From a virus: 64,000 nucleotides of DNA. The first letter of the stretch is position 1; each line of letters begins with the position of its first letter. Under the pieces are notes generated by a model. That model saw only the letters and a program-made list of their open reading frames with translations. It ran no database searches and was not told the origin of the DNA. A program made the translations under genes and the position numbers. Location of the stretch: the IMG/VR virus record IMGVR_UViG_3300046002_006949, positions 4,045 to 68,044 of that record, one strand, 5' to 3'. This document shows positions 49,332-64,000 of this stretch, in pieces.

Positions 49332-51382
49332 TCATGGACTTTGAAAGTCGGTCTCCAGTTGACATTCGTGCTTCCTCCACAGTGAGGTACGCGAAACATC
49401 CGGAGACCGACATTCTTTGTATCGGCCTGAAGTGGAAGGACCGTCCGGCAACAGCCTTGTCTCCTAACAGAGGCAAGTTTGTTCTGGACGGTACCATCCG
49501 ACCAATCGAACTGATGGAAGCGATCCGCATCGGCTGCCCGATCGTGGTCCACAATCTGTCGTTCGAGAAGAGAATGTACCGTCACATCTGTGTCGAGCGG
49601 TGGGGTTGGCCGGAGATCCCGGACTCACAGTGGCGAGACACAGCCGCCATCTGTCGGTACTACGCGGTGCCGGCGAGTCTGAAGATGGCCGCACAAGCGA
49701 TGGAGTTGGACAGCAAGAAGGACATGGAGGGCAACCGTGTCATGCTCCAGCTTGCAAAACCCCGTAAGCCCCGGAAGGCTGAGGTTACGGAATGGCTACA
49801 GTTACACACAAGTACCGACAACATGCCAACGCTGTGGTGGGAGGACGAAGCCAAGCTGGACCGCGTCGTCGAGTACTGCAAGGACGACCTGTATGCACAA
49901 GAGGCCCTCTACATCAAGCTCGGTGATCTTCCCCATGAACGCTACGCTGAGTGGCAGTTCGACGATATGGTCAACGAACGTGGCGTACCCGTCGACTGGG
50001 GGGCATTGGTTGAGGCCAGTCGTCTGATCGAACAATCGATGGGTAACTATGATCGTGAACTTCGTGAGATCACTGCAACGCCTGCGTTCCCGGACGGCAT
50101 GGTCACTGCTGTGACCCAACGTAAGAAGGTGTTGGACTTCTGCGAGCTGCAAGGCTGGTCGATGCTGTCGACAAATAAGGAATCGGTTGAGGACGCGTTG
50201 GCATCACCGAAGCTGCCGGACAGGGTGCGAAGGGTCCTGTCAATCGTCCAGTCCGCAGGTAAGACCTCGCTCGGTAAGGTCGAGACTATGATCGACCTGA
50301 CGGATGATGACTCACGTATCCGGGACAGCCTGGCGTGGCATGGTGCTGCGACCGGTCGTAAAGCCGGCCGCGGGATGCAGCCCCAGAACTTCCCGAGAGA
50401 AGTACTCGGTGACAAAGAGACTGAGGTCTTCCATGAGATCCTCGCTGGTCAGGACTCGTTCATGCACGCGGAATCATTCGCTGCGTTCCAGGACATATCA
50501 GTGCCTGACCTGGTGTCAGCGGCCCTGCGATCATTCATAAAGGCAGACGACGGTAAGCTCCTGTTCGTCTCCGACTTCTCCAATATCGAGACTCGTAACC
50601 TCGCCTGGGTAGCTAACTGTCGGTTGCTGAACGAAGCCTTCAGTACAGGCAAGTGTCCATACCGTCAGTTCGCCAGTCGTGTGTACAACATCCGGGCGGA
50701 GGACATCGCCAAGGGATCGCAGGAGAGACAACTGGGCAAGGTGGCTGTGCTTGGTCTGGGCTACGGCATGGGTGCCCAGAAGTTTAAGGACACAGCCGGG
50801 GCCCCACCTTACAACATCGATCTGCCAGAGGAGCGGGCCAAGGAGATCGTCAAGCTGTACCGTGAGACGTACCCTGAGGTGCCGAAATTCTGGAAGGCGT
50901 GCGAAGACGCGTTCGTCAAGGCGATCAACGAGAAGTCCAGCGTACCAGTTGGCCGGATAGCGTTCGGGTCCAACGGCGATTGGGGCTGGATCGTTCTGCC
51001 TTCTGGCCGAGCTATCTGGATGAAAGACCCTCGGGTTGGTCGCGTACCCGACAGATGGCGAGAGGGTAAGACCCGTCTCGAAATCTCGTACATGGGAGTC
51101 GACAGTAAAACAAAGCAGTGGGTCCGCCGGTCTACATATGGCGGTTCCCTGGTAGAATCAATCTGCCAGGCCGTCGCGGCGGACCTACTGCAGGAGGCAA
51201 TGCACCGACTGGAGGCCAACGGGTACCCCGTGATCCTGTCAGTGCATGACGAAACGGTGTGTCATGCCCCAGCTCATCTCAGTGTTGAGAAGTTCGATGC
51301 GTTGATGAAGGCCCGACCTAAGTGGGCGTTAGACTTACCGGTTGAATGTGAAAGCCACGCAAGCAGGAGGTATGGGAAGTGA
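49316..51382 (+). CDS. polA: Family A DNA polymerase with 3'-5' exonuclease
   Basis: DFES (ExoI), HNLSFE, YCKDD, TGR..QPQN, motif A DFSNIETR, motif B RQLGKVAVLGLGYG, motif C VHDE. Confidence 0.93.
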   Translation: MLTWLVMDFESRSPVDIRASSTVRYAKHPETDILCIGLKWKDRPATALSPNRGKFVLDGTIRPIELMEAIRIGCPIVVHNLSFEKRMYRHICVERWGWPEIPDSQWRDTAAICRYYAVPASLKMAAQAMELDSKKDMEGNRVMLQLAKPRKPRKAEVTEWLQLHTSTDNMPTLWWEDEAKLDRVVEYCKDDLYAQEALYIKLGDLPHERYAEWQFDDMVNERGVPVDWGALVEASRLIEQSMGNYDRELREITATPAFPDGMVTAVTQRKKVLDFCELQGWSMLSTNKESVEDALASPKLPDRVRRVLSIVQSAGKTSLGKVETMIDLTDDDSRIRDSLAWHGAATGRKAGRGMQPQNFPREVLGDKETEVFHEILAGQDSFMHAESFAAFQDISVPDLVSAALRSFIKADDGKLLFVSDFSNIETRNLAWVANCRLLNEAFSTGKCPYRQFASRVYNIRAEDIAKGSQERQLGKVAVLGLGYGMGAQKFKDTAGAPPYNIDLPEERAKEIVKLYRETYPEVPKFWKACEDAFVKAINEKSSVPVGRIAFGSNGDWGWIVLPSGRAIWMKDPRVGRVPDRWREGKTRLEISYMGVDSKTKQWVRRSTYGGSLVESICQAVAADLLQEAMHRLEANGYPVILSVHDETVCHAPAHLSVEKFDALMKARPKWALDLPVECESHASRRYGK

Positions 51383-51576
51383 AGTACTATTGGGGGTCCA
51401 AGATTGAAGTCACAGAAGGTGTCCGCGGTTTCTGCGGGGACCGTAGTTTCAGAGTGGTGGTTGAGGCCGACGTACACTCAGACGATGAAAGCCTTGAAGT
51501 CACACTGTCGCTGGGTGAGGATGAGCTTCGTAAGTTGATGAAACAGATTCAGGATGTACTGGAGGCAGACAGATGA
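51379..51576 (+). CDS. Hypothetical protein
   Basis: GTGA overlap, AGGAGG RBS. Confidence 0.65.
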   Translation: MKYYWGSKIEVTEGVRGFCGDRSFRVVVEADVHSDDESLEVTLSLGEDELRKLMKQIQDVLEADR

Positions 51577-51845
51577 GATACCGGCAGACACCAAACGGTT
51601 GCTTAATACCGATCGATGAAGTCACAGAGCCACCAAAGCACGCAGCGTGGGCCGGGACCCAGACGGACGCCACGAAAGAAGAGATCGATGCTCACCTTCA
51701 GGCGATGTACCGTACTTGCGGGTTTCACCGGGTCGGAGGCCGATGCTGGGGCAGCCCAACACCTGACCCGAAAGCAGTCTTCAACCAGTTCGCCAAGTTC
51801 ATGTACGGCGACGATTGGTTCTTCAACGGTGAGGAGTACTGCTAG
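51573..51845 (+). CDS. Hypothetical protein
   Basis: ATGA overlap, GGAGG RBS. Confidence 0.6.
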   Translation: MRYRQTPNGCLIPIDEVTEPPKHAAWAGTQTDATKEEIDAHLQAMYRTCGFHRVGGRCWGSPTPDPKAVFNQFAKFMYGDDWFFNGEEYC

Positions 51846-52141
51846 TGGCTGGACCCGAGAAACGAATTGAATCCGCCTTCGCCAAGTGGTGCCGTGACAG
51901 CGGCATGTTCTGCCTCAAGCTATCCGCCCAGGGTGTGACCGGTTTTCCTGACCGGTCCATCATCCTGCCCGGCGGTAAGCTGGTGTGTGTCGAGTTCAAA
52001 AGTCCAACAGGTAAGACGTCCAAAGTGCAGGACCAGCGGATCTCGGCACTGCGGTTGCTTGGTGTACCTGTGCTGGTCACGAGTGTGTTGGCCGAAGCGA
52101 AAGATTTTGTGAGAGGGTTTATTGATGCAAGCCGTAGCTGA
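51845..52141 (+). CDS. VRR-NUC domain nuclease
   Basis: EKRIE, GFPDR, VEFKSPTGK.S..Q. Confidence 0.9.
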   Translation: MAGPEKRIESAFAKWCRDSGMFCLKLSAQGVTGFPDRSIILPGGKLVCVEFKSPTGKTSKVQDQRISALRLLGVPVLVTSVLAEAKDFVRGFIDASRS

Positions 52142-53564
52142 TAAGGTCTGGACTCCACATGGGTACCAGAACTCCGGGGTCCAGTTCCTCCACGAGAGGA
52201 CCAGCCTTAACCCCGAGGGTAAAGGCGGGGCCGGACTTCTATGGGACTGCGGGCTCGGCAAGTCCACGACCTGTCTGGAGTGGATGAGTCAGATGAAAGA
52301 GTTCGGCCTCGCAAACCGCTTTCTCATCGTGGCCCCACTCCGTGTTGTCACCAACGTGTGGCCCCGGGAAATCGTCGAGTGGTCTAACTTCAGGTCGCTG
52401 TCCTTCTCAGTGATACATGGCAGTGCGATTGTACGTCGTAAGAGAATGGCAACGCCGGCCAACATCCACATCATCAACCGGGAGGGCATCCCGTGGTTAG
52501 CCAAACAACTCGAAGGTCGTAAGACCCTCCCGTGGCAGGGCATCATCATCGACGAGTCCACGTCGTTTAAGAACTGGTCTGCGGCTAGGTCGAAAGCCCT
52601 GCGTAAGATCATCCCACGCATACCGTACCGCGTCATCCTGACAGGCACGCCGACGCCGAATACTCTGGCTGACCTGTACCCCCAGGTATGGCTGCTCGAT
52701 GAGGGGCAATCCCTCGGTGAAAACATTACTAAGTTCAGGGCCAACAACTGTGCTCAGGTTGGCGAACGTCAGATGAACAAGTTCGAGGTGAGGAAAGACC
52801 GAGAGGCTACCATCCACGACTCGGTGAAGCATCTGGTCCTGCGGCTCGACGCGAAGGATCATCTCGACATGCCGGAGCTGGTCTACAACACGATCCGGTG
52901 CGACCTGCCTTCTAAGGCAATGGCTGAATACAAATCGATGGAGGAGCAACTCTTCGTGGCCCTCGCAGACGGGTCCAGCCGCGGTGCGGTGAATGCTGGT
53001 GCCAAGTACAACGCCTGTCGACAGATCGCCAACGGTGGGATCTATGACGAGCAGCACACCGGGCACCACCTGCACGACGCAAAGGTGGACGCGTTACATG
53101 AACTGATTGAGGAGCTGCAGGGCAAGCCGGTTCTCATCGCGTACCAGTTCGGCCACGACCTTGAGCGTATCCGCAAAAGGTTCCCGAAGATCCAGGCGAT
53201 TCATGGCGGCATGAGGACCGCTGAGGTGGATCGGCTGATAGCCGACTGGAACGGTGGGTGTCTCAGTGGGACACACTTGGCCGTCCAGCCACAGGCCCTG
53301 AGTCATGGAGTGAATCTCCAGGAGGGACCGGGAAGAAACATCTTCTGGTTTGGCCCCTCAGATAACCTCGACACGGTCTACCAGTTCGACCGACGCATTT
53401 ACCGCCAGGGTGTCGGGTCCACTGTCGTGGTGCATCGGGCGTCCTGTAATGACACGCTCGATGAGTTGGTCTGGGAGAAGATCAACAACAAGGAGGAGGT
53501 CCAGTCGAACCTTCTTGAGGTACTACGTCAGTACGCGAAGACGAAGATGTCAAAGCGGGGTTAG
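52125..53564 (+). CDS. SNF2-family helicase
   Basis: PHGYQ, CGLGKS, IVAPLRV, IIDES, LTGTP, HGVNLQ, RIYRQG. Confidence 0.92.
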   Translation: MQAVADKVWTPHGYQNSGVQFLHERTSLNPEGKGGAGLLWDCGLGKSTTCLEWMSQMKEFGLANRFLIVAPLRVVTNVWPREIVEWSNFRSLSFSVIHGSAIVRRKRMATPANIHIINREGIPWLAKQLEGRKTLPWQGIIIDESTSFKNWSAARSKALRKIIPRIPYRVILTGTPTPNTLADLYPQVWLLDEGQSLGENITKFRANNCAQVGERQMNKFEVRKDREATIHDSVKHLVLRLDAKDHLDMPELVYNTIRCDLPSKAMAEYKSMEEQLFVALADGSSRGAVNAGAKYNACRQIANGGIYDEQHTGHHLHDAKVDALHELIEELQGKPVLIAYQFGHDLERIRKRFPKIQAIHGGMRTAEVDRLIADWNGGCLSGTHLAVQPQALSHGVNLQEGPGRNIFWFGPSDNLDTVYQFDRRIYRQGVGSTVVVHRASCNDTLDELVWEKINNKEEVQSNLLEVLRQYAKTKMSKRG

Positions 53565-53965
53565 ACGTACTCATCGCCCCTCAACACGCCTTCAAACAGA
53601 CGCCGGCCCCGGCTGAATATCAGTCGGGTCTTGTACCCGTCGAGGCTATCCTCGCTGTCAGAGGACGTCCAGAACGGGTTCTTCCTCGGGTTGTAGGTCA
53701 ACTCTCGAACAGGCTCGTATTCGTCACCGACGCCAGCCCCAGCTTTGACGTACTCGCAGTCGACCCAGGCACACACGGTCTTATCCGCCCCATCGAAGAT
53801 CTTATTGGCCGTCGCCTTCTGGTTCCTCAGCCTACAGTTTATCAACCGTAAGCCGATCCGGGACGGGTCCGCGTAGAACGGTATCTCGTTCGGCTCTGTA
53901 GGTATCCAAACTTTCCACTTCCCGAAGTTCTTACCGAGACCCAGGTGGAATCTTACTCGTAGCAT
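53561..53965 (-). CDS. Phage hypothetical protein
   Basis: GGAGG RBS after hairpin element R1; convergent with the helicase. Confidence 0.75.
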   Translation of the reverse strand: MLRVRFHLGLGKNFGKWKVWIPTEPNEIPFYADPSRIGLRLINCRLRNQKATANKIFDGADKTVCAWVDCEYVKAGAGVGDEYEPVRELTYNPRKNPFWTSSDSEDSLDGYKTRLIFSRGRRLFEGVLRGDEYV

Positions 53966-53989
53966 GGCACCCTCCAAAAAAGTTTAGTG

Positions 53990-54028
53990 AACACAATGCT
54001 GGTCCTCCGCAGAGGACCAGCGTTACAG
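53990..54028 (-). repeat. Intergenic hairpin element R1 (type A)
   Basis: aacacaatgctggtcctc-cgca-gaggaccagcgttac (+ strand). Confidence 0.85.
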
Positions 54029-54280
54029 TCACTTCAGGTAGTCCTCGGGGTAGAATGGCGTACCGTCCGGCAGATAGACGTGGTCCCCGTCCCAGCTACC
54101 ACACTCACGCTCGCCGAACAGGCATGAGGCGAGCTGTTCCTTGATCTCGCCTTCACCCCTGAACTCACACTTCAAGGGCCAGGGAATCGTATCGATGTCT
54201 CCAGCCGGGTAGTGGTAGATCAACACGTCCTGACCAATCTCAAGTTGGCCACCGCTGCTTGTCAGATGACAGTTATTCAT
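54029..54280 (-). CDS. Hypothetical protein
   Basis: ATGA overlap; stop abuts R1. Confidence 0.7.
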   Translation of the reverse strand: MNNCHLTSSGGQLEIGQDVLIYHYPAGDIDTIPWPLKCEFRGEGEIKEQLASCLFGERECGSWDGDHVYLPDGTPFYPEDYLK

Positions 54281-54510
54281 AGATCCAGGTCCTCACACTT
54301 AGCAGAATAGATTGGCCCACCATCTGTCGGGGCAACCTGTATCGTGGCAGCACCGAGGATACAGACACATCCGACAACGTTTACCATCTGGTCCTGTGAC
54401 TTGTCGTACACAGGGGCCTGAACCAGCTTGTGAAACTGGCGGAGGACAGACTGCATACGAGTCTGCCATGACAATTGAGCAGGGGACTGAGGGGGTTGTT
54501 CACTCGGCAT
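54277..54510 (-). CDS. Hypothetical protein
   Basis: GGAG RBS before ATG at 54510. Confidence 0.6.
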   Translation of the reverse strand: MPSEQPPQSPAQLSWQTRMQSVLRQFHKLVQAPVYDKSQDQMVNVVGCVCILGAATIQVAPTDGGPIYSAKCEDLDL

Positions 54511-54820
54511 CGCGTTCTCCCAGATTCTTAAAACCAGTTGGATATTCAGGCGGATACATCTCACGCCCCTCTTCTTCGATGTTGGTCCATGCCGGCCGCA
54601 TGACGGCGAACATGTACTTTCCATGTGACTCCGGAATGTAGATCGGCGCCGTGTAGTACGGCAGAAGCTGGTCGCCCCAGACTTCTGTCTGGACCATCCA
54701 CTTACCACCTCGGTCCCGGCGGGACAGCTTCACCTGATGACGGTAGCGTGTCCCGTCTGCTGCAATGGTAGACCAGATGTTCCGCCACTGTCTCGGATCA
54801 GCTTCGATTCGACTTGCCAT
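54500..54820 (-). CDS. Hypothetical protein
   Basis: AAAGGA RBS; overlaps its neighbours. Confidence 0.7.
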   Translation of the reverse strand: MASRIEADPRQWRNIWSTIAADGTRYRHQVKLSRRDRGGKWMVQTEVWGDQLLPYYTAPIYIPESHGKYMFAVMRPAWTNIEEEGREMYPPEYPTGFKNLGERDAE

Positions 54821-54998
54821 TGTTCATCCTTTCGTAAGCGTTGTGTAATTCTTTGGAGTACGTGTCATGCCACTTCTTCTCATCCTTCGCGATCATAGCC
54901 ATCGCAAAGATGTAGAGGCCGACCAGTACGAGTGCCGCAAATGCCATGATGGCCAGCGGGTGCGTCGTCTGCACAAGGTCTGTCACTGAGCAGAGCAT
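54798..54998 (-). CDS. Small membrane protein
   Basis: TM segment LAIMAFAALVLVGLYIFAMAMIA. Confidence 0.6.
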   Translation of the reverse strand: MLCSVTDLVQTTHPLAIMAFAALVLVGLYIFAMAMIAKDEKKWHDTYSKELHNAYERMNNGKSNRS

Positions 54999-55231
54999 GG
55001 GTGGTCCTTCTCAAGCGGGTCAAAAATGTTAGCACACAGAATACATTTCAGCTTTCTGAAGCCGAGAATCCAGTGAACCATTCCGCATTCACAAACTGGA
55101 CAGTGCCGCTTTCCCGGCGGCTCGGGGGACTGAGTGCACTCATGACTTTTCATGCCGCACCCTTTGCACCGGCTCGTCTCGTCACAAACAGGCCGGTCAC
55201 CTCCACAGAACTTACAGTGGACTGTTATCAC
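54983..55231 (-). CDS. Small Zn-ribbon (multi-CxxC) protein
   Basis: CKFC, CKGC, CPVC, CILC; AGGAG RBS. Confidence 0.65.
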   Translation of the reverse strand: MITVHCKFCGGDRPVCDETSRCKGCGMKSHECTQSPEPPGKRHCPVCECGMVHWILGFRKLKCILCANIFDPLEKDHPCSAQ

Positions 55232-55255
55232 GATTCATCTCCTAACAAGTGAAGT

Positions 55256-55298
55256 AAGCACACGAAAGAGAGGCTCCGCAAAGCCCCTCCATCCAATG
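55256..55298 (-). repeat. Intergenic hairpin element R2 (type B)
   Basis: acacgaaagagaggctc-cgca-aagcccctccatcca; 36 nt identical to R9. Confidence 0.85.
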
Positions 55299-55299
55299 T

Positions 55300-55644
55300 T
55301 TACGACAGTTCAGATACTTCAGCAACCGGGGCACTTTCGAACAGTTCCCGGACCCGCTCGTCAGTAATCGCGGGGTTCCACCCGACGTAGGTTGCATTGA
55401 GAGGCACAAGGTCACCCATGTGAAGCATCTCGATCGGTACCTCTGCTTCAAGCTCGGTGTCCTCGTACCCGAAGTGGTGACGGGCAAACCCCTCGGAGAC
55501 CGGGACGTTCCGTGAGCTGCGTTCTGACCGATTCCCAGACGTGGCGAAGTACGTACTGTCCGGAAGACCAAACAGCCGGCAGTGGTCCAACGCCTTCAGA
55601 CCGTGGTAAGTGATATCCGGAATAACCAAATTGATTTTGAACAT
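55300..55644 (-). CDS. Hypothetical protein
   Basis: GAGGG RBS; flanked by R3 and R2. Confidence 0.7.
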   Translation of the reverse strand: MFKINLVIPDITYHGLKALDHCRLFGLPDSTYFATSGNRSERSSRNVPVSEGFARHHFGYEDTELEAEVPIEMLHMGDLVPLNATYVGWNPAITDERVRELFESAPVAEVSELS

Positions 55645-55674
55645 GTCATCCCTCTCAAAACTCGTAGCTAAGTA

Positions 55675-55713
55675 AACACAATGCTGACCCACCGCAGTGG
55701 GCCAGCGTTACGA
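55675..55713 (-). repeat. Intergenic hairpin element R3 (type A)
   Basis: aacacaatgctgacccac-cgca-gtgggccagcgttac. Confidence 0.85.
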
Positions 55714-56130
55714 TCACTCAAACTCAGGACCCACGCAGTACAGGTTCACAAGCTGTTCCGCCTGATCCATCGGTACTGGTCGGCGGGCACCGTCGAACCA
55801 GTCCTTGTACCAGTAGTAGCACCCGGTCAGCTCATCGCCTGTGAACTCAAAGTCAAACCCGTCTGATGGGCCACCCCACGATAGCAGGACGGTGTACTTC
55901 ATGACTTTGTCGACAGACAGCACGTCTTCCAGTTCACGGTCCCTGTGACGCTCACGGAGGGCGTCAATCAGGTCATCTGACGAATGGTCCGCTGGATCAA
56001 TGTCGAGGTCAGACGCCCAACTCTGGATGTCCTCGTCGGACATGTCGTCCCAATCGGGTAACAGATTCTCAAGTGTGCCGATCAGTCGGCTGTTGATCAG
56101 CTCTTCACACGTTTTCTGTTCAGTCATCAC
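55714..56130 (-). CDS. Acidic phage protein
   Basis: LSWGGPSD..YWYKDWFDGA motif; D/E-rich; GGAGG RBS. Confidence 0.75.
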   Translation of the reverse strand: MMTEQKTCEELINSRLIGTLENLLPDWDDMSDEDIQSWASDLDIDPADHSSDDLIDALRERHRDRELEDVLSVDKVMKYTVLLSWGGPSDGFDFEFTGDELTGCYYWYKDWFDGARRPVPMDQAEQLVNLYCVGPEFE

Positions 56131-56154
56131 TAACCCTCCAAAAGTGTTTAAGAG

Positions 56155-56216
56155 AACACGAGCGACAGGCCCCGCAAGGCCCGTCTGTCACACCCTCTCA
56201 ATCGCTCGGCACCTGC
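56155..56216 (-). repeat. Intergenic hairpin element R4 (type C)
   Basis: aacacgagcgacaggccc-cgca-aggcccgtctgtcaca...tcaatcgctcggcacctgc. Confidence 0.85.
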
Positions 56217-56217
56217 A

Positions 56218-56652
56218 CTAGAATATGTATCTGCGGACTTGGTTGATGTCGGCTTTCAGAGTCTCCCTCCGGGTACAAAGCTCCGCGAGTTCCTGTTCGT
56301 AGTCATCACTGTCCTCGTCAAGTTCACTCGACTGGTCATCCAGCTCTGACAGTTCGCCCTCCAGCTCAGACAGAAGATCCTCCCGGGATTCTTCAAGGTC
56401 TCGGGTTTCGTACTCTTCGCCACGAACCTCGATAAAGTCCTCCCCATCAACCCAGTCGTTCCGGCCGCACCGGTACGCCACCGGGTCCATCGTCTTCAGG
56501 ACGAACGATGGCATCATACAGCTAAACGGCCCACCGACAGACTCGAACGAGTAACCCTCGTCAAGCATATCGTCGTACATCTCGTCCGTGTCGATGGCAT
56601 CGCATTCTGCTTCGACACGGTCCAGCAACTCTTCAATTTTGTCGTCTTTCAC
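56218..56652 (-). CDS. Highly acidic protein (DNA-mimic candidate)
   Basis: YDDMLDE..PS.VLK..DPVAYRCG.NDW motif plus a D/E-rich coiled coil. Confidence 0.75.
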   Translation of the reverse strand: MKDDKIEELLDRVEAECDAIDTDEMYDDMLDEGYSFESVGGPFSCMMPSFVLKTMDPVAYRCGRNDWVDGEDFIEVRGEEYETRDLEESREDLLSELEGELSELDDQSSELDEDSDDYEQELAELCTRRETLKADINQVRRYIF

Positions 56653-56667
56653 AACCCACCTCCGGTC

Positions 56668-56722
56668 AAAAGAAGAACCGCCCGGCAGCGAGGGACGTAT
56701 CCTCGATTGCCACCGGGCGGTT
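56668..56722 (-). terminator. Long hairpin with U-tract on the minus strand
   Basis: aaccgcccgg...ccgggcggtt stem, inner cgagg/cctcg, followed by cttctttt on the minus strand. Confidence 0.6.
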
Positions 56723-56886
56723 TAGATAATTCTGTTGTGCGTGAAGGTCGCCACCGTAAGTCTACATGGTCGTTTCCCCTTTCGTGAACCTTAACACCGG
56801 GTCAACCAATCGGAATGGCTGACGTAGTGTTCAGGTCGGTAAAGAAACTCTCTCGACAGGTCTTTGATCTCAGGTCAGTTTACAAA

Positions 56887-57291
56887 TCAACCACAGAAAG
56901 ACAAGTACAACCTGCCTTCGTGCATGTACAGATTCCCAGAGAAGCGACCGCTGCCGGCGTCCCTCTCGTACTGCTCCCAGTTGATTTCGTTCTCATCATC
57001 ATCCCAACAGCCTGACTCCAGCTCACGGTAGTCACCCGCCGCGGACTGGATGATCAACGCCTTCGTCTCGACGTCGGTCCAGGCATCGATCTCTTCGTCG
57101 TCCCAGGCTCCCCACGTTCGGATGTAGTCCTTGGCCTCCTGAATCTCTTCAGGTGTCAGGGTGATCTTGTCCGAGTTGTCCAGAGCGTTGTTCCATGTGA
57201 TCTTGCCAGCGTCTGGACCCAGCTCAGCCACTGAGGCTGAGTATCTTGGGGCGTAGTCCTCCAGCAAGAATGACACGTCGATCTCAAGCAT
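56887..57291 (-). CDS. Acidic phage protein
   Basis: SASVAELGPDAGKITWNNA, WGAWDDEEI; GGAGG RBS. Confidence 0.75.
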   Translation of the reverse strand: MLEIDVSFLLEDYAPRYSASVAELGPDAGKITWNNALDNSDKITLTPEEIQEAKDYIRTWGAWDDEEIDAWTDVETKALIIQSAAGDYRELESGCWDDDENEINWEQYERDAGSGRFSGNLYMHEGRLYLSFCG

Positions 57292-57316
57292 TTGGTTCCT
57301 CCCTTCAAAACCTGTT

Positions 57317-57365
57317 AAGCACACGATCGACGAGCCTCGCAAGGCCCGTCTGTCACAAGCTCAAC
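57317..57365 (-). repeat. Intergenic hairpin element R5 (type C)
   Basis: aagcacacgatcgacgagcct-cgca-aggcccgtctgtcacaagctcaac. Confidence 0.85.
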
Positions 57366-57744
57366 CGTTCGGCTCATCACTAAAGGACAGTTGACGAAGG
57401 TCTCGACCAACAATAGCCGTCAGGTTCCGCAGGTCTCGATCCGTCATCTTGTACCCAATCTCGGCGGCCATACCCCGGAGAATCTTCGCCAGGACGCTTG
57501 TGGCGTTCCGTACGTCGGACTTGTACTCAACCGGGCCTTTCCGTTGACCGAAGGGGACCCCCGCTTCCTTCAACGCCTGTTTGACCGTTACGATGGACAG
57601 GTTGAAGCCGGTATCCGCCTTCACAGCAGCCTGGATATCAGGCAGAGGGAGGTACAGTACCTCCACTTTCGTAGTTGGCCGCTCGATCCAGTTCATGAGT
57701 GCTTTCATGGACTGAAAGGTCGGCCGGTCTGATGATAGTCTCAC
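57361..57744 (-). CDS. Hypothetical protein (possible HTH)
   Basis: AGGAG RBS; IQAAVKADTGFNLSIVTVKQAL. Confidence 0.7.
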   Translation of the reverse strand: MRLSSDRPTFQSMKALMNWIERPTTKVEVLYLPLPDIQAAVKADTGFNLSIVTVKQALKEAGVPFGQRKGPVEYKSDVRNATSVLAKILRGMAAEIGYKMTDRDLRNLTAIVGRDLRQLSFSDEPNG

Positions 57745-57770
57745 GTAGATTCTCCTCTAAACCAAATGAT

Positions 57771-57839
57771 CTGTTAAGCACACGATCGGTAGCCACCGCA
57801 GTGGCCACCTGTCACAAGCTCAACGCTCCGGACCTGCTA
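57771..57839 (-). repeat. Intergenic hairpin element R6 (type C)
   Basis: ctgttaagcacacgatcggtagccac-cgca-gtggccacctgtcacaagctcaacgctccggacctgcta. Confidence 0.85.
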
Positions 57840-58055
57840 TTCTATTAAGAACTCATCGGCGTCATCCGTATCGAACGGGTAGTCACCATCCAGCAGATCC
57901 ACCAACCAACCCTCGAACACTGCAACCACGGAAATACTTTCGTCCGGGTAGAGTTTGGCCAGAGCCAGAGCGGCGTCCATAGGTGATTCACCCTCGAAGT
58001 GACCGACGTAACGCAGCCACGTTGTGGTGTAGACTCCAACGATTGTGTACTTCAT
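57837..58055 (-). CDS. Hypothetical protein
   Basis: ATGA overlap; its TAG forms the start of R6. Confidence 0.7.
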   Translation of the reverse strand: MKYTIVGVYTTTWLRYVGHFEGESPMDAALALAKLYPDESISVVAVFEGWLVDLLDGDYPFDTDDADEFLIE

Positions 58056-58597
58056 TCCTGATCGTCCTCGTACTGCTGAAGGGATTCCTCAATCCAGCAC
58101 CGAGGCACCACAGCGAACCAGCAGGCATCGGTACACTGATACGTATGGAAGGTGATGAACTTGTCTTCCATCGCTTTCGAGATGGACCCGATGCACTGGT
58201 ATGTTTCAGCCAGTACCATCGCTCGCACGTCCTCAACCCCACAGTCAAGCTCCTCAGCAATGACTTTCACCTCATGCTGATTCTCGACTTCTTCGATGGC
58301 GTAACCGGCCACACAGCAGCCCTGCCCAACCGGTATCGTTGTGAACCGGTGGCCTGGCTCCATGTCGAATGACCACACATCAAACGCATCACGCAGGTAC
58401 TCTACCTGCTCGTCTGTGATGCCTGGGAACTGCTCACGAGCATATTCCTCCAGCTTGTCCTTTGACCACCGGTCCTCCATCACACAATGAGTGTAGGCAT
58501 CACCCGCGTCACTGTGCTTCTCCTCATACTCCAGGTAAGCCTCATCACACTTGGTGAGGTATTCACTGAACGCCTTCTGTAATTCTTCAGTAACCAT
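58052..58597 (-). CDS. Acidic hypothetical protein
   Basis: AGGAGG RBS; E/D-rich. Confidence 0.75.
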   Translation of the reverse strand: MVTEELQKAFSEYLTKCDEAYLEYEEKHSDAGDAYTHCVMEDRWSKDKLEEYAREQFPGITDEQVEYLRDAFDVWSFDMEPGHRFTTIPVGQGCCVAGYAIEEVENQHEVKVIAEELDCGVEDVRAMVLAETYQCIGSISKAMEDKFITFHTYQCTDACWFAVVPRCWIEESLQQYEDDQE

Positions 58598-58622
58598 TTG
58601 ACCCTCCTGTTCGGTTTGAATG

Positions 58623-58668
58623 AACACAACGGTCCCCCGCCGCAGCGGGAGAACCTTGTAACCACTCA
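58623..58668 (-). repeat. Intergenic hairpin element R7 (variant)
   Basis: aacacaacggtcccccgc-cgca-gcgggagaaccttgtaacc. Confidence 0.75.
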
Positions 58669-59325
58669 GGCCGGCGAACCATCTTCCTCGAACTCATACT
58701 CGTTGGCGATTAGGTTTTCGTCAATCGCCTCGTCAGTCATGTACCAGTCGTACGTCTTCTCAAGTTGCTGGTACAACCAGTCGGCGAGCCAACGCAGGTT
58801 GTTCTCAACAACTTCTTCACGACCACGGTCCTCCATTGGCTCCCACTCGCCCTCCGAATTCTCAAACTCGTTGAACTCAAACCGCATGGTGTGAGAGTGT
58901 GAGTATCGACCAGTGGTTGTGATGTCCACACGGCACGTTGCGTTGTACGGTTGGACAAAGTCCACGAACAGACATGCAGCGATGTTGTGCAGGTCCTCAT
59001 CCAACGGTGCGTGCTCTTTGATCTTCTCAACCATGTCCAGCTCGCCACGGAACTCACCAGCAAAACTGGCTCCGTCACCCTGTGAACTGAAACCACTGAA
59101 GGCGATTTCCGGCTTCTGTATGGTCCCACCACCCATCAGTCGTACCGTGCTGGTCTTCAGCTCGATACCGAGGATCTTACAGATGGTCTGGAAGTCATCG
59201 AATGTGCAGTCCCACCATTCATCAAACGGGTAGTCATCATGACTGTACCACTCACGGGCCTTCTCCTTGGCCTCGTCACTCAATTCCTCGAACTTGTAAA
59301 CCTTGGTCACTTTATCCCTGGGCAT
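58666..59325 (-). CDS. Acidic protein of the family commonly annotated 'antitoxin of toxin-antitoxin stability system'
   Basis: VYKFEELSDEAKEKAREWY, TVRLMGGGT, FSGFSSQGDGA, WLYQQLE, ANEYEFEEDG; family recalled from memory, function unverified. Confidence 0.7.
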   Translation of the reverse strand: MPRDKVTKVYKFEELSDEAKEKAREWYSHDDYPFDEWWDCTFDDFQTICKILGIELKTSTVRLMGGGTIQKPEIAFSGFSSQGDGASFAGEFRGELDMVEKIKEHAPLDEDLHNIAACLFVDFVQPYNATCRVDITTTGRYSHSHTMRFEFNEFENSEGEWEPMEDRGREEVVENNLRWLADWLYQQLEKTYDWYMTDEAIDENLIANEYEFEEDGSPA

Positions 59326-59341
59326 GTTTATCTCCTTTCTG

Positions 59342-59408
59342 AGAGAACACGATCGACGAGCCCCGCAAGGCTCGTCTGTCACATCCACTCAACGCACCGG
59401 ACCTGCTA
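59342..59408 (-). repeat. Intergenic hairpin element R8 (type C)
   Basis: agagaacacgatcgacgagccc-cgca-aggctcgtctgtcacatccactcaacgcaccggacctgcta. Confidence 0.85.
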
Positions 59409-59966
59409 TTCACATTCATATACAAGTTCATCAGTCGCAACGGACCAGATGTTGTAAGGTGCCTTCCCCTCCTCAAACCAGTCAGCCGCCAGACAGTACG
59501 TCTTCGGCCCATCAGGACAGAACGTGTCCAGGTTACCAGCACCCGGCACACATGGCGAGCAGAACTGTGCTCTGGTGTAGACTGGTGATTTGAAGACCCA
59601 CAGGTTGTTGTCCGATGTGGTCTGAACGGTCAGACCTTCGAATTCATAGGCATACGGGCCAGACTCATCACGTTCCCAGTCCTGATCCTGCATGACGTTG
59701 TCCGCCATGTCAGACAGGTCATCATCGTCAGGCTTGAGACCCAGGTTCTCCATGACATGCCTGAAGCCCTTCTGAAGGCTGTCCTTCAACTCTTCAATAG
59801 CCGCTGTGTACCCAACGTCCTCACCGTGAGTGTACACATCATCCATAGCGTAGCAGTTGACGCTGTGCTGACTGATGATACCGTACCGGATACCAGTCTC
59901 CGCGTCTCGGTTGACCGGGCTGCTCGGCCCCGAGTAATCAATACCCGGATCGTTCGATTTCTTCAT
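59406..59966 (-). CDS. Acidic phage protein
   Basis: NRDAETGIRYGIISQ, FCSPCVPGAGNLD; AGGAG RBS. Confidence 0.75.
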   Translation of the reverse strand: MKKSNDPGIDYSGPSSPVNRDAETGIRYGIISQHSVNCYAMDDVYTHGEDVGYTAAIEELKDSLQKGFRHVMENLGLKPDDDDLSDMADNVMQDQDWERDESGPYAYEFEGLTVQTTSDNNLWVFKSPVYTRAQFCSPCVPGAGNLDTFCPDGPKTYCLAADWFEEGKAPYNIWSVATDELVYECE

Positions 59967-59994
59967 CGCCTTCTCCTGTTACAAAACTGAAAGT

Positions 59995-60030
59995 ACACGA
60001 AAGAGAGGCTCCGCAAAGCCCCTCCATCCA
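59995..60030 (-). repeat. Intergenic hairpin element R9 (type B)
   Basis: 36-nt exact copy of R2 (55260-55295). Confidence 0.88.
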
Positions 60031-60035
60031 GCACT

Positions 60036-60725
60036 TCAAACCTTTACCCGGTCGAGCCATTCAATCAGCTCGGTGGTGTTCATCTTCCAATTAAAGTGAG
60101 CACCCTCATTTGTGTGATGCACCTCCATGTCCATGACGTTGAATGCACAGCCCTTGAGGCTTTCTTCGTCAACGGTATCGAGTTTGGCAATCAGGTCTGC
60201 CATCCACTCTTCTACACGCAGGACGCAGTCCCCACAACCACACAGATCAACGTCCATGCCCCAGTTCTTACACCATCGCTGGTAAGGCTCCACAGGGTCG
60301 CCATAGAACTCATTCATGTGAGACTCTAATGCACTCTCACACTCTCGACGGAAGTCAGTACAGGCCCATAGCGACCATGATTCATCTTCCAGCTCAGTCT
60401 CACGTCTGCCCAGGTCTTCGTCACACAACACAGGATAGTCCTGCAAGGCCCCAGCATAGTCATACGCTGTGTCAAAGGCTTTCGCGTCTGATGGGTCGAT
60501 GATAATGATCTCGAACCATCCAGGACCCCAGTGGCCAAACCTGTGAACCTCTACGGTTTCGCCTTCCCCACCAAGTGCCTCAAGGAACATGGCGAAGTTC
60601 GACTGCTCAAGGCAGCCTGAGTCTCTCGTCCGCATTACCGGCATGACGAGCCAGTCCTCCCGTTCAATATCGATGTTGCCATCGAATTGTGTAGGGGACC
60701 AGTCTGCATAACGCTGAAAGTCCAT
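60036..60725 (-). CDS. Acidic phage protein
   Basis: RDSGCLEQSNF, HRFGHWGPGWFE, LQDYPVL; AGGAG RBS. Confidence 0.75.
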   Translation of the reverse strand: MDFQRYADWSPTQFDGNIDIEREDWLVMPVMRTRDSGCLEQSNFAMFLEALGGEGETVEVHRFGHWGPGWFEIIIIDPSDAKAFDTAYDYAGALQDYPVLCDEDLGRRETELEDESWSLWACTDFRRECESALESHMNEFYGDPVEPYQRWCKNWGMDVDLCGCGDCVLRVEEWMADLIAKLDTVDEESLKGCAFNVMDMEVHHTNEGAHFNWKMNTTELIEWLDRVKV

Positions 60726-60735
60726 TTGGTTACTC

Positions 60736-61089
60736 CTAAGGAAGTCCGTCGTCACCGACCCAACCATTGGCTCGGGGGTCATCACTATGTGGATCGTTCC
60801 ACACATGCCAGATCTCGTCCGCTTCTTCTTCGATCTGATCAATTGCTGAATTGATTGACTTTACTGTGACCTCAGTCCACAAAAACTCGTGGGTCTGACA
60901 ATCACAGTCCGCACCTTCTACGATACTGCCGATAGCAATACCCCGGGGTGTCTCCCGAATCCAGGCACCACACATAGTTGCTTTGTACAACCGGCGTGCC
61001 GCCAGTTCCCAGTCAATAGGCTCACCCATTGGTAGTTCGAAGAACTTACGGACAGCATCACTGCCCCGCACAATGTCGTCTTCGTCCAT
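60736..61089 (-). CDS. Acidic phage protein
   Basis: LYKATMCGAW, IGSIVEGAD; AGGAG RBS. Confidence 0.75.
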   Translation of the reverse strand: MDEDDIVRGSDAVRKFFELPMGEPIDWELAARRLYKATMCGAWIRETPRGIAIGSIVEGADCDCQTHEFLWTEVTVKSINSAIDQIEEEADEIWHVWNDPHSDDPRANGWVGDDGLP

Positions 61090-61123
61090 TTGGTTACTCC
61101 TCAACAAGCGGAATTGCTTGAGC

Positions 61124-61172
61124 GAGCCTCACCTCGGTGGGGCTCTGTCCAACAATCGCACCGGACCTGCTA
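61124..61172 (-). repeat. Intergenic hairpin element R10 (degenerate type C)
   Basis: gagcctcac-ctcg-gtggggctc then tgtc...cgcaccggacctgcta. Confidence 0.65.
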
Positions 61173-61565
61173 TTCAATATCACCATTCTCAATGGCTTCG
61201 CCTTCTGTAGTGTCAATGCAGAAAGCAATACACCAGCGGCAGGTGGTCGCTGTGTCGTCTTCGTGACCTGTGAGATTATCACCACAGGCTTCACAAGTAG
61301 GCCGTATCGCAAACACCTCAGCAATGAACTGAGCGACACGGAAAGCGTCAGCCCGGCCTTCTACCTCACTAGGCATATACCACTTACCATTTGCGTCCCA
61401 AGCAGCAATCTCGGCTGTCTGAGAGCCTTCTGCACCGCACAGGGTATTCTCTGAGTACGGCCGGCTGTAGTTATCACAGTAGTTGCCTGAGCCCCACTGG
61501 ACGCTCACGGTCCAACCGTTCTCGAACGTGATATGGAAACCCTTACCATCAGTGATCTTGAACAC
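61170..61565 (-). CDS. Phage hypothetical protein with C-terminal CxxC pairs
   Basis: GFHITFENGWTVSVQW..GNYC; GGAGG RBS before GTG at 61565. Confidence 0.7.
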   Translation of the reverse strand: MFKITDGKGFHITFENGWTVSVQWGSGNYCDNYSRPYSENTLCGAEGSQTAEIAAWDANGKWYMPSEVEGRADAFRVAQFIAEVFAIRPTCEACGDNLTGHEDDTATTCRWCIAFCIDTTEGEAIENGDIE

Positions 61566-61749
61566 TCGACACCTCCACTTCAATTGTACTGTCATCCACG
61601 ATTTGCTGCTGTACCTCACAAAGCTCCAGTATCATAAGGCGGAGCCGGTCATTCCGCCTTCTATGGCATGACCCACAGAGGCAGACAGGCTGGCCAAATA
61701 CCTTAAAGACTGATGCTGGTTCGTTACACCATTCACAGGTTCGAAGCAT
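61549..61749 (-). CDS. Small Zn-finger protein
   Basis: CEWC...LCGSC; overlaps its neighbours. Confidence 0.6.
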   Translation of the reverse strand: MLRTCEWCNEPASVFKVFGQPVCLCGSCHRRRNDRLRLMILELCEVQQQIVDDSTIEVEVSSVQDH

Positions 61750-62023
61750 TGGACTGCCCTTTCACCATGTCTCGAACGCCTTCTGCATCAATCGGGCAGA
61801 AGTCATTACCAGGGAGCCGGATGAAGCACGTACCGTTATTAGATATCTGGTACACGCGAATCCTCCGCCAACCACGATGTTCTCTGATCTTTACCATGTA
61901 GTCTGTGGGAGCACCACATCGTCTGGTGTACCCATATGAGTCCATACAACGCAGAACCTGGTACTGCGTGACGGGAGACAGCTTTGCCGCCTCCACCTCG
62001 AATAGACTTACGTTTCTCATCAC
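61733..62023 (-). CDS. Hypothetical protein (first gene of the minus-strand early array)
   Basis: GGAGGTG RBS; YGY..GAPTDYMVK..WRRIRVYQISN.GT.FI. Confidence 0.7.
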   Translation of the reverse strand: MMRNVSLFEVEAAKLSPVTQYQVLRCMDSYGYTRRCGAPTDYMVKIREHRGWRRIRVYQISNNGTCFIRLPGNDFCPIDAEGVRDMVKGQSNASNL

Positions 62024-62268
62024 TCACCTCCGCTGGGTTTGGAAACACCATCGACACAGCACCAATCGCTGTCGACCTGCCATTCTACTTCCGCCTTCTT
62101 ACTTATTAGCTCCCGGGGGACTTAGTCCTATAAATATGTCTTAGTTTATACTTTAAAAGGCAGGAAACCGACGATAACCAGCATATCCAGACCGATTGAC
62201 GGTCGATACACTTGGCAGCCCTGGCTCATGTCGAGTCAGGGACACAAACCACATGAAAGGAACAAACC

Positions 62269-62919
62269 ATGCGACATTCTACAACCCCGTTTGAACGTCT
62301 TACCGACTCCCAGGCACTTGCCATTATTATCGCAGTACGGGAAAACGGACACAAACCATTCGCAAACGTCACAGGATCGAGCCAGGCAGCTTGCCACATG
62401 TTCCCCAACACAAACACCGCGGAAGACGACAAACCCGCCGCAGACGCCGAACCAGGGGCCCCCACAACCGCAACCGTCCTGCCTTGCGAAGCGTACGCGA
62501 TACGGCAGGAGGACATCTATTACCAGGTCCGATGGCTGTTGATGTCCGATGAATCACCAATCTGTAAAGAACTCAGGGATTGTACTGCAGACATGCAGGC
62601 ACATGACCGTGACGATATGCGGCAGGATCTTTGCCTGCAGCATTGGAGACGAGCAGTCGCTGCAGAATACCGGGGAATCCGGAAGTATTCCGTTGGCAAA
62701 TGGATCATCGGAGACGTTCGACGATGGATCGGCAGGAACGTAGGGAAATCAGAACTGACAGCAAACCCAAACCCGCTAACCGCGGAGGAACTTAGAACTC
62801 TAAGTCTACAAAGCAGGTCGGCAACGATTGACAAGGAACTAGCGAACGAGATGGCATCCAGCCTGGCAGCTTTGGCAAAAGCCAAACCACCAGCACCCCT
62901 GGTTTCGTTCACCTGGTAG
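62269..62919 (+). CDS. Hypothetical protein
   Basis: AAAGGA RBS; 216 aa, divergent from the early array. Confidence 0.6.
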   Translation: MRHSTTPFERLTDSQALAIIIAVRENGHKPFANVTGSSQAACHMFPNTNTAEDDKPAADAEPGAPTTATVLPCEAYAIRQEDIYYQVRWLLMSDESPICKELRDCTADMQAHDRDDMRQDLCLQHWRRAVAAEYRGIRKYSVGKWIIGDVRRWIGRNVGKSELTANPNPLTAEELRTLSLQSRSATIDKELANEMASSLAALAKAKPPAPLVSFTW

Positions 62920-62936
62920 TTTGATTGGTTCAATTC

Positions 62937-62959
62937 GACCGGCAGACAGTCTGCCGGTC
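62937..62959. repeat. 23-bp palindrome
   Basis: gaccggcagac-a-gtctgccggtc. Confidence 0.8.
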
Positions 62960-62991
62960 ATTCCTCAGAAGTATGGTCGAAAGGTATTACA

Positions 62992-63513
62992 ATGAATTTT
63001 GATATCGTCGCGAAAATTGCGGAACTGGTGGCCCTGGGCGTCCCGGCTGACGTGGCTGGGCAGATTGCAGGGCAGCAGATGCTCCAGCTACAGCAAGAAC
63101 TCTCAGCAGTACAAGAACAGTCCAGGAAGGAAATCCAAGCTAAGACGGACGAACAATTAGGAGTAAAGACTTTCCTGGGAAAACGCATCCAAAACATGAA
63201 AGGTGACAGACCTACGAAGTATTCCAAGGCAATGGAAAACGGACTGGCAGTTGAGCCCGCGAATCGGGGGCTAGACTCCAATGGCAAGGCAGTATTGTGG
63301 CCACCACAATTTTGGCTCTTCGCGAGCCAGGCGAAGCCGCTTAACTTTACCCAGGCGGAATCGGCCACCCTGCTGGCAGTCATCGAAGGCGCAGGTGTCG
63401 AACGGTTCATTGATGCTCTTAAAGCATGTGCATCACCTGAGGCAATCAAAGCTTACCAGGCCGACCGGAAGGCCCTGGAGACATCCGGAGAGATCCTGAG
63501 CCGGACAAAGTAA
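62992..63513 (+). CDS. Hypothetical protein
   Basis: AAAGG RBS; 173 aa followed by a terminator. Confidence 0.75.
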   Translation: MNFDIVAKIAELVALGVPADVAGQIAGQQMLQLQQELSAVQEQSRKEIQAKTDEQLGVKTFLGKRIQNMKGDRPTKYSKAMENGLAVEPANRGLDSNGKAVLWPPQFWLFASQAKPLNFTQAESATLLAVIEGAGVERFIDALKACASPEAIKAYQADRKALETSGEILSRTK

Positions 63514-63537
63514 GCCCAACGCACCTCGATCAATCTC

Positions 63538-63571
63538 CAGCCGGCCAGGGTAACACCTGGCCGGCTGTTTT
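63538..63571 (+). terminator. Intrinsic terminator
   Basis: cagccggccagg-gtaaca-cctggccggctg-tttt. Confidence 0.75.
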
Positions 63572-63783
63572 CGTTGATGGATTGTAGGGCAAAAACGAGG
63601 TGATCCGGCGCAGCTGCGCAGCCTCACATAGGGTGACCCATCACAGCTCGACCATGTGGCCCCGTCAGCATAGGATGAGCACATCATGCAGGATGTTGAG
63701 CCGGACAAGGTAAGCAAACTGCAGACGGGGTGAGGGATGGCTGCAATGATGCAGGACGGGGGCAGGACGGAGGCAGGACGGGC

Positions 63784-63838
63784 TGTAAACTTTCTTACAT
63801 TCTCACCTTGCAGACGCACCGGTAAGAAAGTTTACCAT
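63784..63838. repeat. Inverted pair of (G/T)GTAA-N6-TTAC(C/A) boxes
   Basis: gtaaactttcttac (63785-63798) is the exact reverse complement of gtaagaaagtttac (63822-63835); same motif as 901-1031. Confidence 0.75.
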
Positions 63839-64000
63839 GCGTCACCGTTCGGCCAATTCCAGGATGAGGCAAAAAGCCTGTAAATTCGGCTGTTTTCGGC
63901 TCGACCGGTGAAAATCCAGCCTCGACCAGGGAAGTTTGAGCCGGAAGAAGACCGGGTAGTCATGGTCCTTACAGTGGTCCTATGCGCCTTTGTCTCTTCT

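Follow-up and report, generated by a model that had tools for sequence, protein, structure and literature searches.

Intercistronic RNA hairpins with a UGCG loop in the accessory-gene operon of a lake phage and its relatives

Hairpin elements of the accessory operon

The 64,000-bp stretch of DNA analysed here (the window, to which all positions refer unless stated otherwise) represents bases 4045-68044 of the complete 68,044-bp virus record IMGVR_UViG_3300046002_006949, hereafter G000. Its minus strand carries a leftward accessory-gene operon, along which a hairpin element with a UGCG loop is repeated, confined to non-overlapping gene junctions. An earlier note on the window, made from the sequence letters, had pointed to an array of these stem-loops. 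The present analysis adds a lower stem to the stem-loop, so that the element is a 56-nt hairpin of 23 base pairs. The operon and its elements are listed below. Scores were obtained with the covariance model of the full 56-nt element; R1 and R10 were also identified by their folds.

53561..62083, minus strand: accessory-gene operon of about 20 small open reading frames (ORFs), mostly without known family, holding all elements
53981..54036, minus strand: element R1, GUAACG flank, between gQ and gR (62.0 bits; fold)
55250..55305, minus strand: element R2, UGGAUG flank, between gL and gM (53.6 bits)
55666..55721, minus strand: element R3, GUAACG flank, between gK and gL (61.8 bits)
56146..56201, minus strand: element R4, GUGACA flank and 5' extension, between gJ and gK (69.0 bits)
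57311..57366, minus strand: element R5, GUGACA flank, between gH and gI (63.0 bits)
57770..57825, minus strand: element R6, GUGACA flank and 5' extension, between gG and gH (66.2 bits)
58614..58669, minus strand: element R7, ACAAGG flank, between gE and gF (52.8 bits)
59337..59392, minus strand: element R8, GUGACA flank and 5' extension, between gD and gE (65.7 bits)
59985..60040, minus strand: element R9, UGGAUG flank, between gC and gD (57.9 bits)
61106..61161, minus strand: element R10, divergent variant, between gA and gB (14.2 bits, E 0.92; fold)

The whole 68,044-bp genome was scanned on both strands for TGCG-loop hairpins with stems of at least 5 bp. The scan revealed 11 such hairpins on the minus strand and four on the plus strand. 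Nine of them, all on the minus strand and all intergenic, had stems of 8-10 bp; their loops lie at positions 54011, 55280, 55696, 56176, 57341, 57800, 58644, 59367, and 60015. GTGT starts at the 14th base past the loop in 9/9 copies, and the nine copies align without gaps. The only other stem of at least 8 bp, in a plus-strand TGCG hairpin at 51433, was rejected, its fold being no better than those of shuffles (z -1.1). Covariance models were built from the copies for a 46-nt core (the core model) and for the full 56-nt element (the full-length model). The core model recovers exactly these nine copies in the genome, on one strand only.

The tenth element, R10, has the 5' extension in common with the GUGACA-type copies but folds into a long and irregular hairpin whose loop is CGAG, with one mismatch and a tail of another type. 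The proposed architecture of a stem-loop with a UGCG loop and GUGU holds for nine copies but not for R10, which has the CGAG loop and scores 14.2 bits versus 46-73 bits. The three subfamilies that had been distinguished are recovered by flank, namely GUAACG in R1 and R3, UGGAUG in R2 and R9, and GUGACA in R4, R5, R6, and R8; R10, assigned to the last of these, shares only its 5' part, and R7 stands alone. A 36-nt core is identical in R2 and R9. The fold of R4 has a 14-bp lower stem, and in R5 the stop codon of gH lies within the lower stem.

Most intergenic gaps had been thought to carry the element. Nine do so, while the sole long element-free gap of the operon (56653-56887, minus strand) holds a terminator instead. 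The elements delimit cassettes, as the earlier note had it, and these contain one to five ORFs rather than one to four, the span from R2 to R1 comprising five.

Structure, strand and distribution of the hairpin

Two complete IMG/VR genomes, G001 and G002, were found via the helicase (64-65% protein identity), and two further complete genomes, G003 and G004, via a scan of viral contigs with a degenerate element pattern. A metagenome fragment, L026 (helicase 57% identity), carries one copy. Among the 20 pattern-scan loci outside G001 and G002, four (in G003 and G004) were true elements, one was a weak partial match, and 15 had no model match. The core model gave 9 copies in G000, 5+1 in G001, 7+1 in G002, 7 in G003, and 7 in G004. 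The tail type of R10 in combination with a UGCG loop occurs once in G001 and once in G002 (35.3 and 35.6 bits with the full-length model). All copies in G000-G004 and L026 are located in the equivalent operon and on the same strand.

The window gave no match to Rfam 15 at the gathering threshold, and at E values up to 1 the region 53500-62300 gave only a chance-level match to a snoRNA family (18.3 bits versus a cut-off of 45 bits). This agrees with the earlier suggestion that the element is undescribed. It represents a new, well-defined RNA motif family which, within the searches made, is confined to a small clade of lake phages, with five complete genomes of 65-68 kb and one fragment.

An alignment of 33 copies (32 of them distinct), 56 columns wide and free of gaps, was used for pair counts. 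Folds of the intergenic regions, and then of all copies with their flanks, revealed that the GUGU/pyrimidine tail pairs with purine-rich sequence that precedes the stem and surrounds the stop codon of the upstream gene. Contrary to its previous description as a separate part after the hairpin, the tail is the 3' strand of the lower stem and is not single-stranded. The 23 pairs comprise 14 in the lower and 9 in the upper stem, with a 2-nt by 2-nt internal loop between the stems and the UGCG tetraloop at the top. The lower stem, of up to 14 pairs, is rich in G-U pairs and often holds the upstream stop codon. According to the folds and the alignment, 10-11 positions separate the tetraloop from the internal loop, which is 2x2 or 1x1 and occupies columns 15-16/39-40. 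A tenth upper-stem pair in the GUAACG and UGGAUG types reduces the internal loop to 1x1. The 74-nt stretches around each copy fold at -23 to -37 kcal/mol.

Paired cells make up 91.2% of the 736 cells of the alignment, versus 36-47% when the partners are slid by 1-3 columns; the cells include 526 Watson-Crick pairs, 145 G-U pairs, 10 A-C mismatches, and 55 other mismatches. Both sides have changed in 18/23 pairs. The covariation on which the proposal of an RNA element depended is strong, with a score of 0.700 versus 0.269 in shuffles, a value reached by 0/500 of them. The upper stem alone is paired in 99% of its cells, eight of its nine pairs having been replaced through compensatory changes. 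Alignment and pair counts also showed that the stem sequences quoted earlier were correct. A resemblance of the R7 stem to a type I-E CRISPR repeat was considered, but the other stems differ freely and a CRISPR-repeat mimic was rejected.

The most regular part of the element, besides the loop, is a box just below the internal loop. Column 14/41 (A14-U41) is A-U in 32/32 distinct copies, and column 13/42 (R13-Y42) switches cleanly from G-C (23 copies) to A-U (9 copies). Wobbles (U-G or G-U) predominate in columns 10-12/43-45; in column 9/46, 12/32 copies have a wobble and 14/32 are unpaired. The spacing between loop and box is fixed. The loop itself reads UGCG in 33/34 distinct copies and CGCG in one.

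The 145 G-U pairs versus 10 A-C mismatches confirm the strand asymmetry that had been noticed in single copies. On the opposite strand, each G-U pair would be an A-C mismatch. On average, the fold energy is -27.3 kcal/mol for sense and -19.6 kcal/mol for antisense RNA, with the sense strand folding better in 32/33 copies (p 6e-7). With the full-length model, sense-strand scores are 46-73 bits, and antisense scores do not exceed 25.6 bits. When DNA parameters are used, the element reaches no more than weak folds of -5 to -15 kcal/mol, with a lower stem that is unstable or absent. Therefore, the selected structure resides in the transcript; covariation, fold energies, and pair counts agree in this with the selection on the transcribed strand postulated earlier.

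In 15/33 copies, the 5' strand of the lower stem includes the upstream stop codon (columns 2-12); in 16/33, which carry the 5' extension, this codon precedes the hairpin by 13-20 nt. Past column 54 the hairpin is followed by mostly A/C-rich sequence and then by a Shine-Dalgarno sequence, the start codon with its Shine-Dalgarno lying 11-27 nt past the hairpin in 32/33 copies. Sequestration of the Shine-Dalgarno sequence by the 5' extension was not supported (mean pairing probability 0.42 versus 0.34 with a shuffled extension, n = 32, p = 0.17).

Cassette exchange and genome setting

Genes and elements mapped over the five operons form a mosaic, in which a backbone order (F4-E-F5 ... F1-E-F2 ...) is overlaid by insertions, replacements, and translocations. 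Between G001 and G002, three elements stand out as islands (76, 88, and 79 bp) with an identity of 97-99%, as compared with 77-92% for the genes shared by these genomes. Two of the islands have unrelated flanks. Between G003 and G004, 6/10 block junctions, as read from the block ends, fall within about 35 nt of an element, and elements with this margin cover roughly a tenth of the compared region. In the window, gR (F15) comes after the last element. Its homologue in G003 and G004 comes after F2 and is placed behind a different element, and the homology to these two genomes breaks between positions 53990 and 53975, at the 3' edge of element R1. Relative to G001 and G002, gL together with one element is an insertion in the window. 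The genome of G002 has an extra gene for a 238-aa protein between F1 and F2, bracketed by two elements. At the F2|F15 junction an element is present in G003 and absent in G004; the difference extends exactly from the stop codon to the Shine-Dalgarno sequence, and no target duplication was seen at this indel. Contigs of a divergent relative from one public run, each a single contig of low depth, lose similarity at 56657, 58596/7, 59323, and 60041, all of which are gene starts or stops beside conserved linkers. On these comparisons, cassette breakpoints do cluster at the elements, as the earlier note had anticipated for gains and losses of genes in relatives.

One contig of 1,391 nt in run X19 joins position 59994 (gD/R9) to 55260 (R2/gL) via 36 letters common to both sites. 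Excision of the 4.7-kb segment as a circle, or its tandem duplication, would produce this junction. With a depth of 4.7 and gaps in coverage next to both repeats, an artefact of assembly is no less likely. The run X19 assembly is a short-word (31-mer) assembly, which a 36-nt repeat could mislead.

Two further stretches are repeated between genes of the operon. The unrelated genes gG, gD, and gA share the last sense codon, the stop codon, and the 5' extension (57837-57848, 59406-59414, and 61170-61178, minus strand). The repeat unit therefore extends into the coding sequence of these genes, and the crossover point may be inside the last codons. Also, the adjacent genes gB and gC agree in every letter over about 17 nt (minus strand, about 61085-61101 and 60721-60737), comprising the Shine-Dalgarno sequence, spacer, ATG, and next codon. 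No hairpin is present between gB and gC despite this common start; the stretch may represent another type of linker or the scar of a recombination event.

Conservation covers the entire linker from stop to start codon but not the genes on either side, and the linkers may therefore serve as homology patches. General or phage-encoded homologous recombination would swap, insert, and delete cassettes at these patches, and cassette exchange would be a by-product of the linkers, as proposed for the promoter-early stem-loops (PeSLs) of phage T4. The pattern fits recombination of this type and not a site-specific integron mechanism, since the structure is RNA-specific and no tyrosine recombinase was seen in the 64 ORFs scanned. 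The integron-like shuffling suggested earlier is not upheld in its mechanistic sense: the alignment, as we read it, displays no attC-like conserved end motifs, and the lower stem pairs only as RNA.

It is very improbable that the element acts as DNA, be it a site-specific recombination site folded in single-stranded DNA like attC, a small mobile element, or a hairpin promoter of the N4 type. The occurrence of identical islands among unrelated genes, the lone presence or absence of an element at F2|F15, and the junction of 59994 with 55260 through the 36 letters of R9 and R2 would all suit such an element. The indel, however, lacks a visible target duplication, the junction comes from one contig of depth 4.7 with gaps on both sides, and the elements are mostly orthologous rather than proliferating. 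The 145 G-U pairs versus 10 A-C mismatches and the weak DNA folds of the lower stem also speak against it. Among the 64 ORFs scanned, no tyrosine recombinase, transposase, or RNA polymerase family was detected, and the one recombinase present is of the serine type and has the placement of a phage integrase.

Promoters within the element were considered separately. An N4-type hairpin promoter was rejected, as no virion RNA polymerase family was found and the pairing is sense-strand specific. The largest ORF, of 1,560 aa, had no family match and is taken, by its position, for the tape-measure protein. In agreement with the earlier remark that no obvious sigma70 promoter is present, the scan gave no consistent match in the elements. 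The region 50000-64000 contains 4 sigma70-like sites versus 7.5 +/- 3.1 in shuffles, and the promoter-like sites on the minus strand are only two, both in the spacer between R6 and gH. Sigma54 and extracytoplasmic function (ECF) promoters were rejected by eye, the spacing being unfit when compared with their consensus sequences.

The remaining features of the operon and its surroundings are as follows:

52122-53564, plus strand: helicase gene, converging with the leftward accessory operon
56668-56722, minus strand: canonical intrinsic terminator with a long GC stem followed by a U-run, inside the operon and outside the hairpin family
62269-62919 and 62992-63513, plus strand: two divergent ORFs without known family, upstream of the operon

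The terminator lies directly before the Shine-Dalgarno sequence of gJ, in the element-free gap. Its equivalent is present in G003 and G004 as an 80-bp block of 98.75% identity. In G003, a tRNA-Cys gene on the operon strand precedes the equivalent piece; the window has no tRNA gene. This terminator shows what a real terminator of this host looks like.

No Pfam match at E values up to 0.01 was obtained for 17/20 of the operon ORFs scanned, and no PHROG match at E values up to 0.001 for 16/20. Small Cys-rich/Arg-rich ORFs are located at the head of the operon (61549-61749 and 61733-62020), and gM is Cys-rich as well. The AT-rich divergent intergenic region 62100-62268, between the operon and the two rightward ORFs, is the likely control region of the operon; a promoter scan of this region gave nothing convincing.

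Domain scans of the plus strand identified genes for a Prim-Pol/DUF3987 primase, a serine recombinase, terminase, portal, and tail proteins, as well as a PD-(D/E)XK nuclease, an Enc34-type single-stranded DNA-binding protein, and a family A DNA polymerase. The serine-recombinase (Resolvase) ORF at 4829-6400 on the plus strand has about 200 residues ahead of the domain, and its Pfam match falls into two stretches; the ORF may have a mis-called start or represent two fused genes. An exact direct repeat of 181 bp links bases 1-181 of G000 to bases 67856-68036 (window about 63812-63992). Since its start recurs near its end, the record represents a complete genome, either terminally redundant or assembled as a circle, though classed 'linear'.

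The DNA of this virus is present in lake-water metagenome runs, with no RNA run among those listed. A collection of named phages contained no close relative by megablast, and protein matches were below 40% identity. Helicase matches in three Prochlorococcus single-cell assemblies reached only 25-34% identity, which says nothing on the host.

Readings of the element and comparison with known systems

According to PMC1540722, substrates of Escherichia coli RNase III typically comprise two helical turns; internal loops limit the enzyme to one strand and one phosphodiester, leaving a 3' hairpin that guards against 3'-5' exonucleases, and the shortest reactive distance between cut site and tetraloop is 11 bp. 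The phage element forms a helix of this length (about 20 bp or more), with 23 covarying pairs and a 2-nt internal loop. The internal loop lies 10-11 positions from the apical loop, as compared with about 11 bp. The element is also placed between cistrons, with a stop codon in it or 13-20 nt before it in 31/33 copies and a start codon after it in 32/33. We estimate a probability of about 0.5 that the elements are host RNase III processing and 3'-stabilising hairpins, a lineage-specific version of the T7-type signals. The hairpin forms in the polycistronic mRNA of the leftward accessory operon and would be a substrate of host RNase III, as are the T7 early processing signals. By analogy, cleavage would take place at the internal loop or at the invariant A-U / R-Y pairs, which are 10-13 positions away from the tetraloop. 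The transcript would thereby be divided into mRNAs of cassette size, each retaining the upper stem-loop as protection at its 3' end. The RNase III family PF14622 of Pfam had no match in the phage's own genome.

Polycistronic transcripts of T7 contain ten RNase III sites, and T7 still grows without the enzyme (PMC6938266). When five T7 early intergenic spacers were folded, upper stems of 9-13 bp with 3-5-nt loops were found, with internal loops and lower stems below them. The GCAA loop obtained for R1.1 agrees with that given in PMC1540722. A UGCG loop on a 9-bp stem was seen in the 0.7/1 spacer, which precedes gene 1, and a lower stem contains the gene 0.4 stop codon. T7 RNase III sites, named earlier as one analogue, are the right one, and more so than was realised then: the tail forms a second helix.

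Several points weigh against processing by RNase III combined with exchange at the linkers. We take the folded T7 spacers to be the RNase III sites (Dunn and Studier, 1983), and the T7 RefSeq record carries no such annotation. The RNase III of the phage's host may differ in specificity. The folded T7 sites have larger internal loops than the phage elements, in which these are 2x2 or 1x1. The full-length model found no match in T7 400-7000 at E values up to 1; because of this, the likeness to T7 sites is one of design and not of descent, that is, of an analogue and not of a homologue. The invariant UGCG loop, which is the most conserved feature, is left unexplained, since no strict tetraloop sequence requirement is described for the E. 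coli enzyme in PMC1540722, while the stems have been turned over. As to the exchange of cassettes, 4/10 junctions between G003 and G004 lie away from elements. Moreover, because the closest copy lies in another genome for 26/32 elements, these are mostly inherited in place and not actively spreading.

A change at position 2 of the loop should be harmless for stability. The loop is either read by something else or kept by some other constraint. The hairpin could be the site of a dedicated RNA-binding protein, of the phage or the host, which reads the UGCG loop and the A-U / R-Y / wobble box and controls how the next cistron is translated, how stable the message is, or whether the internal terminator is read through. 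Although unlikely, this would explain why the loop was kept in 33/34 copies when a change at position 2 should preserve the stable tetraloop class, why A14-U41 is invariant and R13-Y42 covaries only from G-C to A-U, and why the spacing between loop and box is fixed. The Cys-rich/Arg-rich small ORFs at the operon head, the Cys-rich gM, and the strong mid-operon terminator would also agree with it. On the other hand, the 64 ORFs scanned include no RNA-binding, antiterminator, or nuclease family, ten sites per operon are far more than nut or put systems are known to use, and the paired tail leaves no free boxA-like strand. It is quite improbable, more specifically, that a lineage-specific factor, such as a Cys/Arg-rich protein of the operon head, reads loop and box and processes or protects the cassette mRNAs or carries RNA polymerase past the terminator. 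These operon-head ORFs are, speculatively, the sole candidates for a loop-reading factor. If such a factor exists, the hairpins would be the cis sites of a private, cassette-portable expression system and not generic RNase III targets.

The stability of the hairpins (-23 to -37 kcal/mol) and their tight fit between stop codon and Shine-Dalgarno sequence would also suit passive, uncut punctuation, namely 3'-exonuclease barriers, insulators of ribosome-binding sites, or weak graded terminators. A terminator scan flags R1, R3, and R7 (3/9 copies), and about 40% of the copies, as read from the listing, have a U-run a few bases past the hairpin. This is rather unlikely to be their role: the U-runs are inconsistent and do not abut the stem, unlike the U-tract of the true terminator at 56668-56722, and a passive barrier has no need for a fixed internal loop, an invariant box, and an invariant loop. 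As a class, the elements lack the layout of canonical intrinsic terminators, since no U-tract abuts the hairpin and mostly A/C-rich sequence followed by a Shine-Dalgarno sequence comes after it.

The family is most likely, by analogy, a lineage-specific version of the known T7-type intercistronic hairpin, doubling as a homology patch. With its alignment, structure, and covariance model, it adds a new RNA motif, absent from Rfam 15, for uncultivated lake phages. It would indicate that T7-style intercistronic hairpins are not peculiar to T7-like phages and recur, independently evolved, in accessory arrays of unrelated phages. RNA processing signals and conserved linkers for cassette exchange, which are usually treated apart, may be linked in this family. 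The linkers also mark cassette boundaries in an operon where 17/20 ORFs have no Pfam family. If processing is confirmed, the elements could be used as portable insulators in synthetic operons.

Among known systems, attC sites of integrons are folded single-stranded DNA with conserved end motifs and need the IntI tyrosine recombinase. They resemble the phage elements as structured palindromes of variable sequence, which close each gene cassette on its 3' side in an array that runs in one direction. They differ in that the pairing of the phage elements is RNA-specific and that no tyrosine recombinase was found in the 64 ORFs scanned.

The nut sites of phage lambda and the antiterminators of rrn operons also combine a hairpin with a short conserved pyrimidine-rich stretch beside it, in an early operon with a terminator. 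In the phage elements, by contrast, this stretch is base-paired, the loop is a tetraloop, and ten copies are present in one operon. A boxB-boxA antitermination signal like that of rrn or lambda was rejected, the tail being the 3' strand of the covarying lower stem; its covariation with the upstream strand likewise disfavours antitermination of the nut/boxA type, which the earlier note had listed among possible functions. Pfam and PHROG scans of the ORFs revealed no N-like protein family.

The extended start-associated sequences (ESAS) of Cluster K mycobacteriophages are inverted-repeat elements just upstream of some non-structural gene starts, in one orientation, for which PMC3203893 gives no known function. 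Their arms follow a consensus, and the departures from it speak against RNA pairing, according to the authors (PMC3203893). The arms of the phage element, in contrast, differ freely and covary.

The PeSLs of T4-type phages consist of a strong sigma70-like promoter and an effective terminator stem-loop (PMC2839356). Like the phage elements, they are short conserved intergenic modules with a stem-loop among non-essential small genes, and insertions, deletions, and replacements between relatives occur at these modules (PMC2839356). A junction like that of a mini-circle was encountered once here (59994 to 55260) and is ambiguous. The phage elements differ from PeSLs in having no consistent promoter and no abutting U-tract.

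The closest parallel is offered by the T7 sites R0.3, R0.5, R1, R1.1, and R1.3, with R1.1 RNA as the model substrate. The phage elements are distinguished from them by the invariant UGCG loop, the conserved box below the internal loop, and the presence of up to nine copies within 6 kb. Both are intercistronic hairpins in a polycistronic early or accessory mRNA, with an upper stem of about 9-10 bp, a small stable loop, an internal loop about one turn below, and a lower stem, making about two turns in total. In both, G-U pairs are common, the lower stem can include the stop codon, and the hairpin is directly followed by the next ribosome-binding site.

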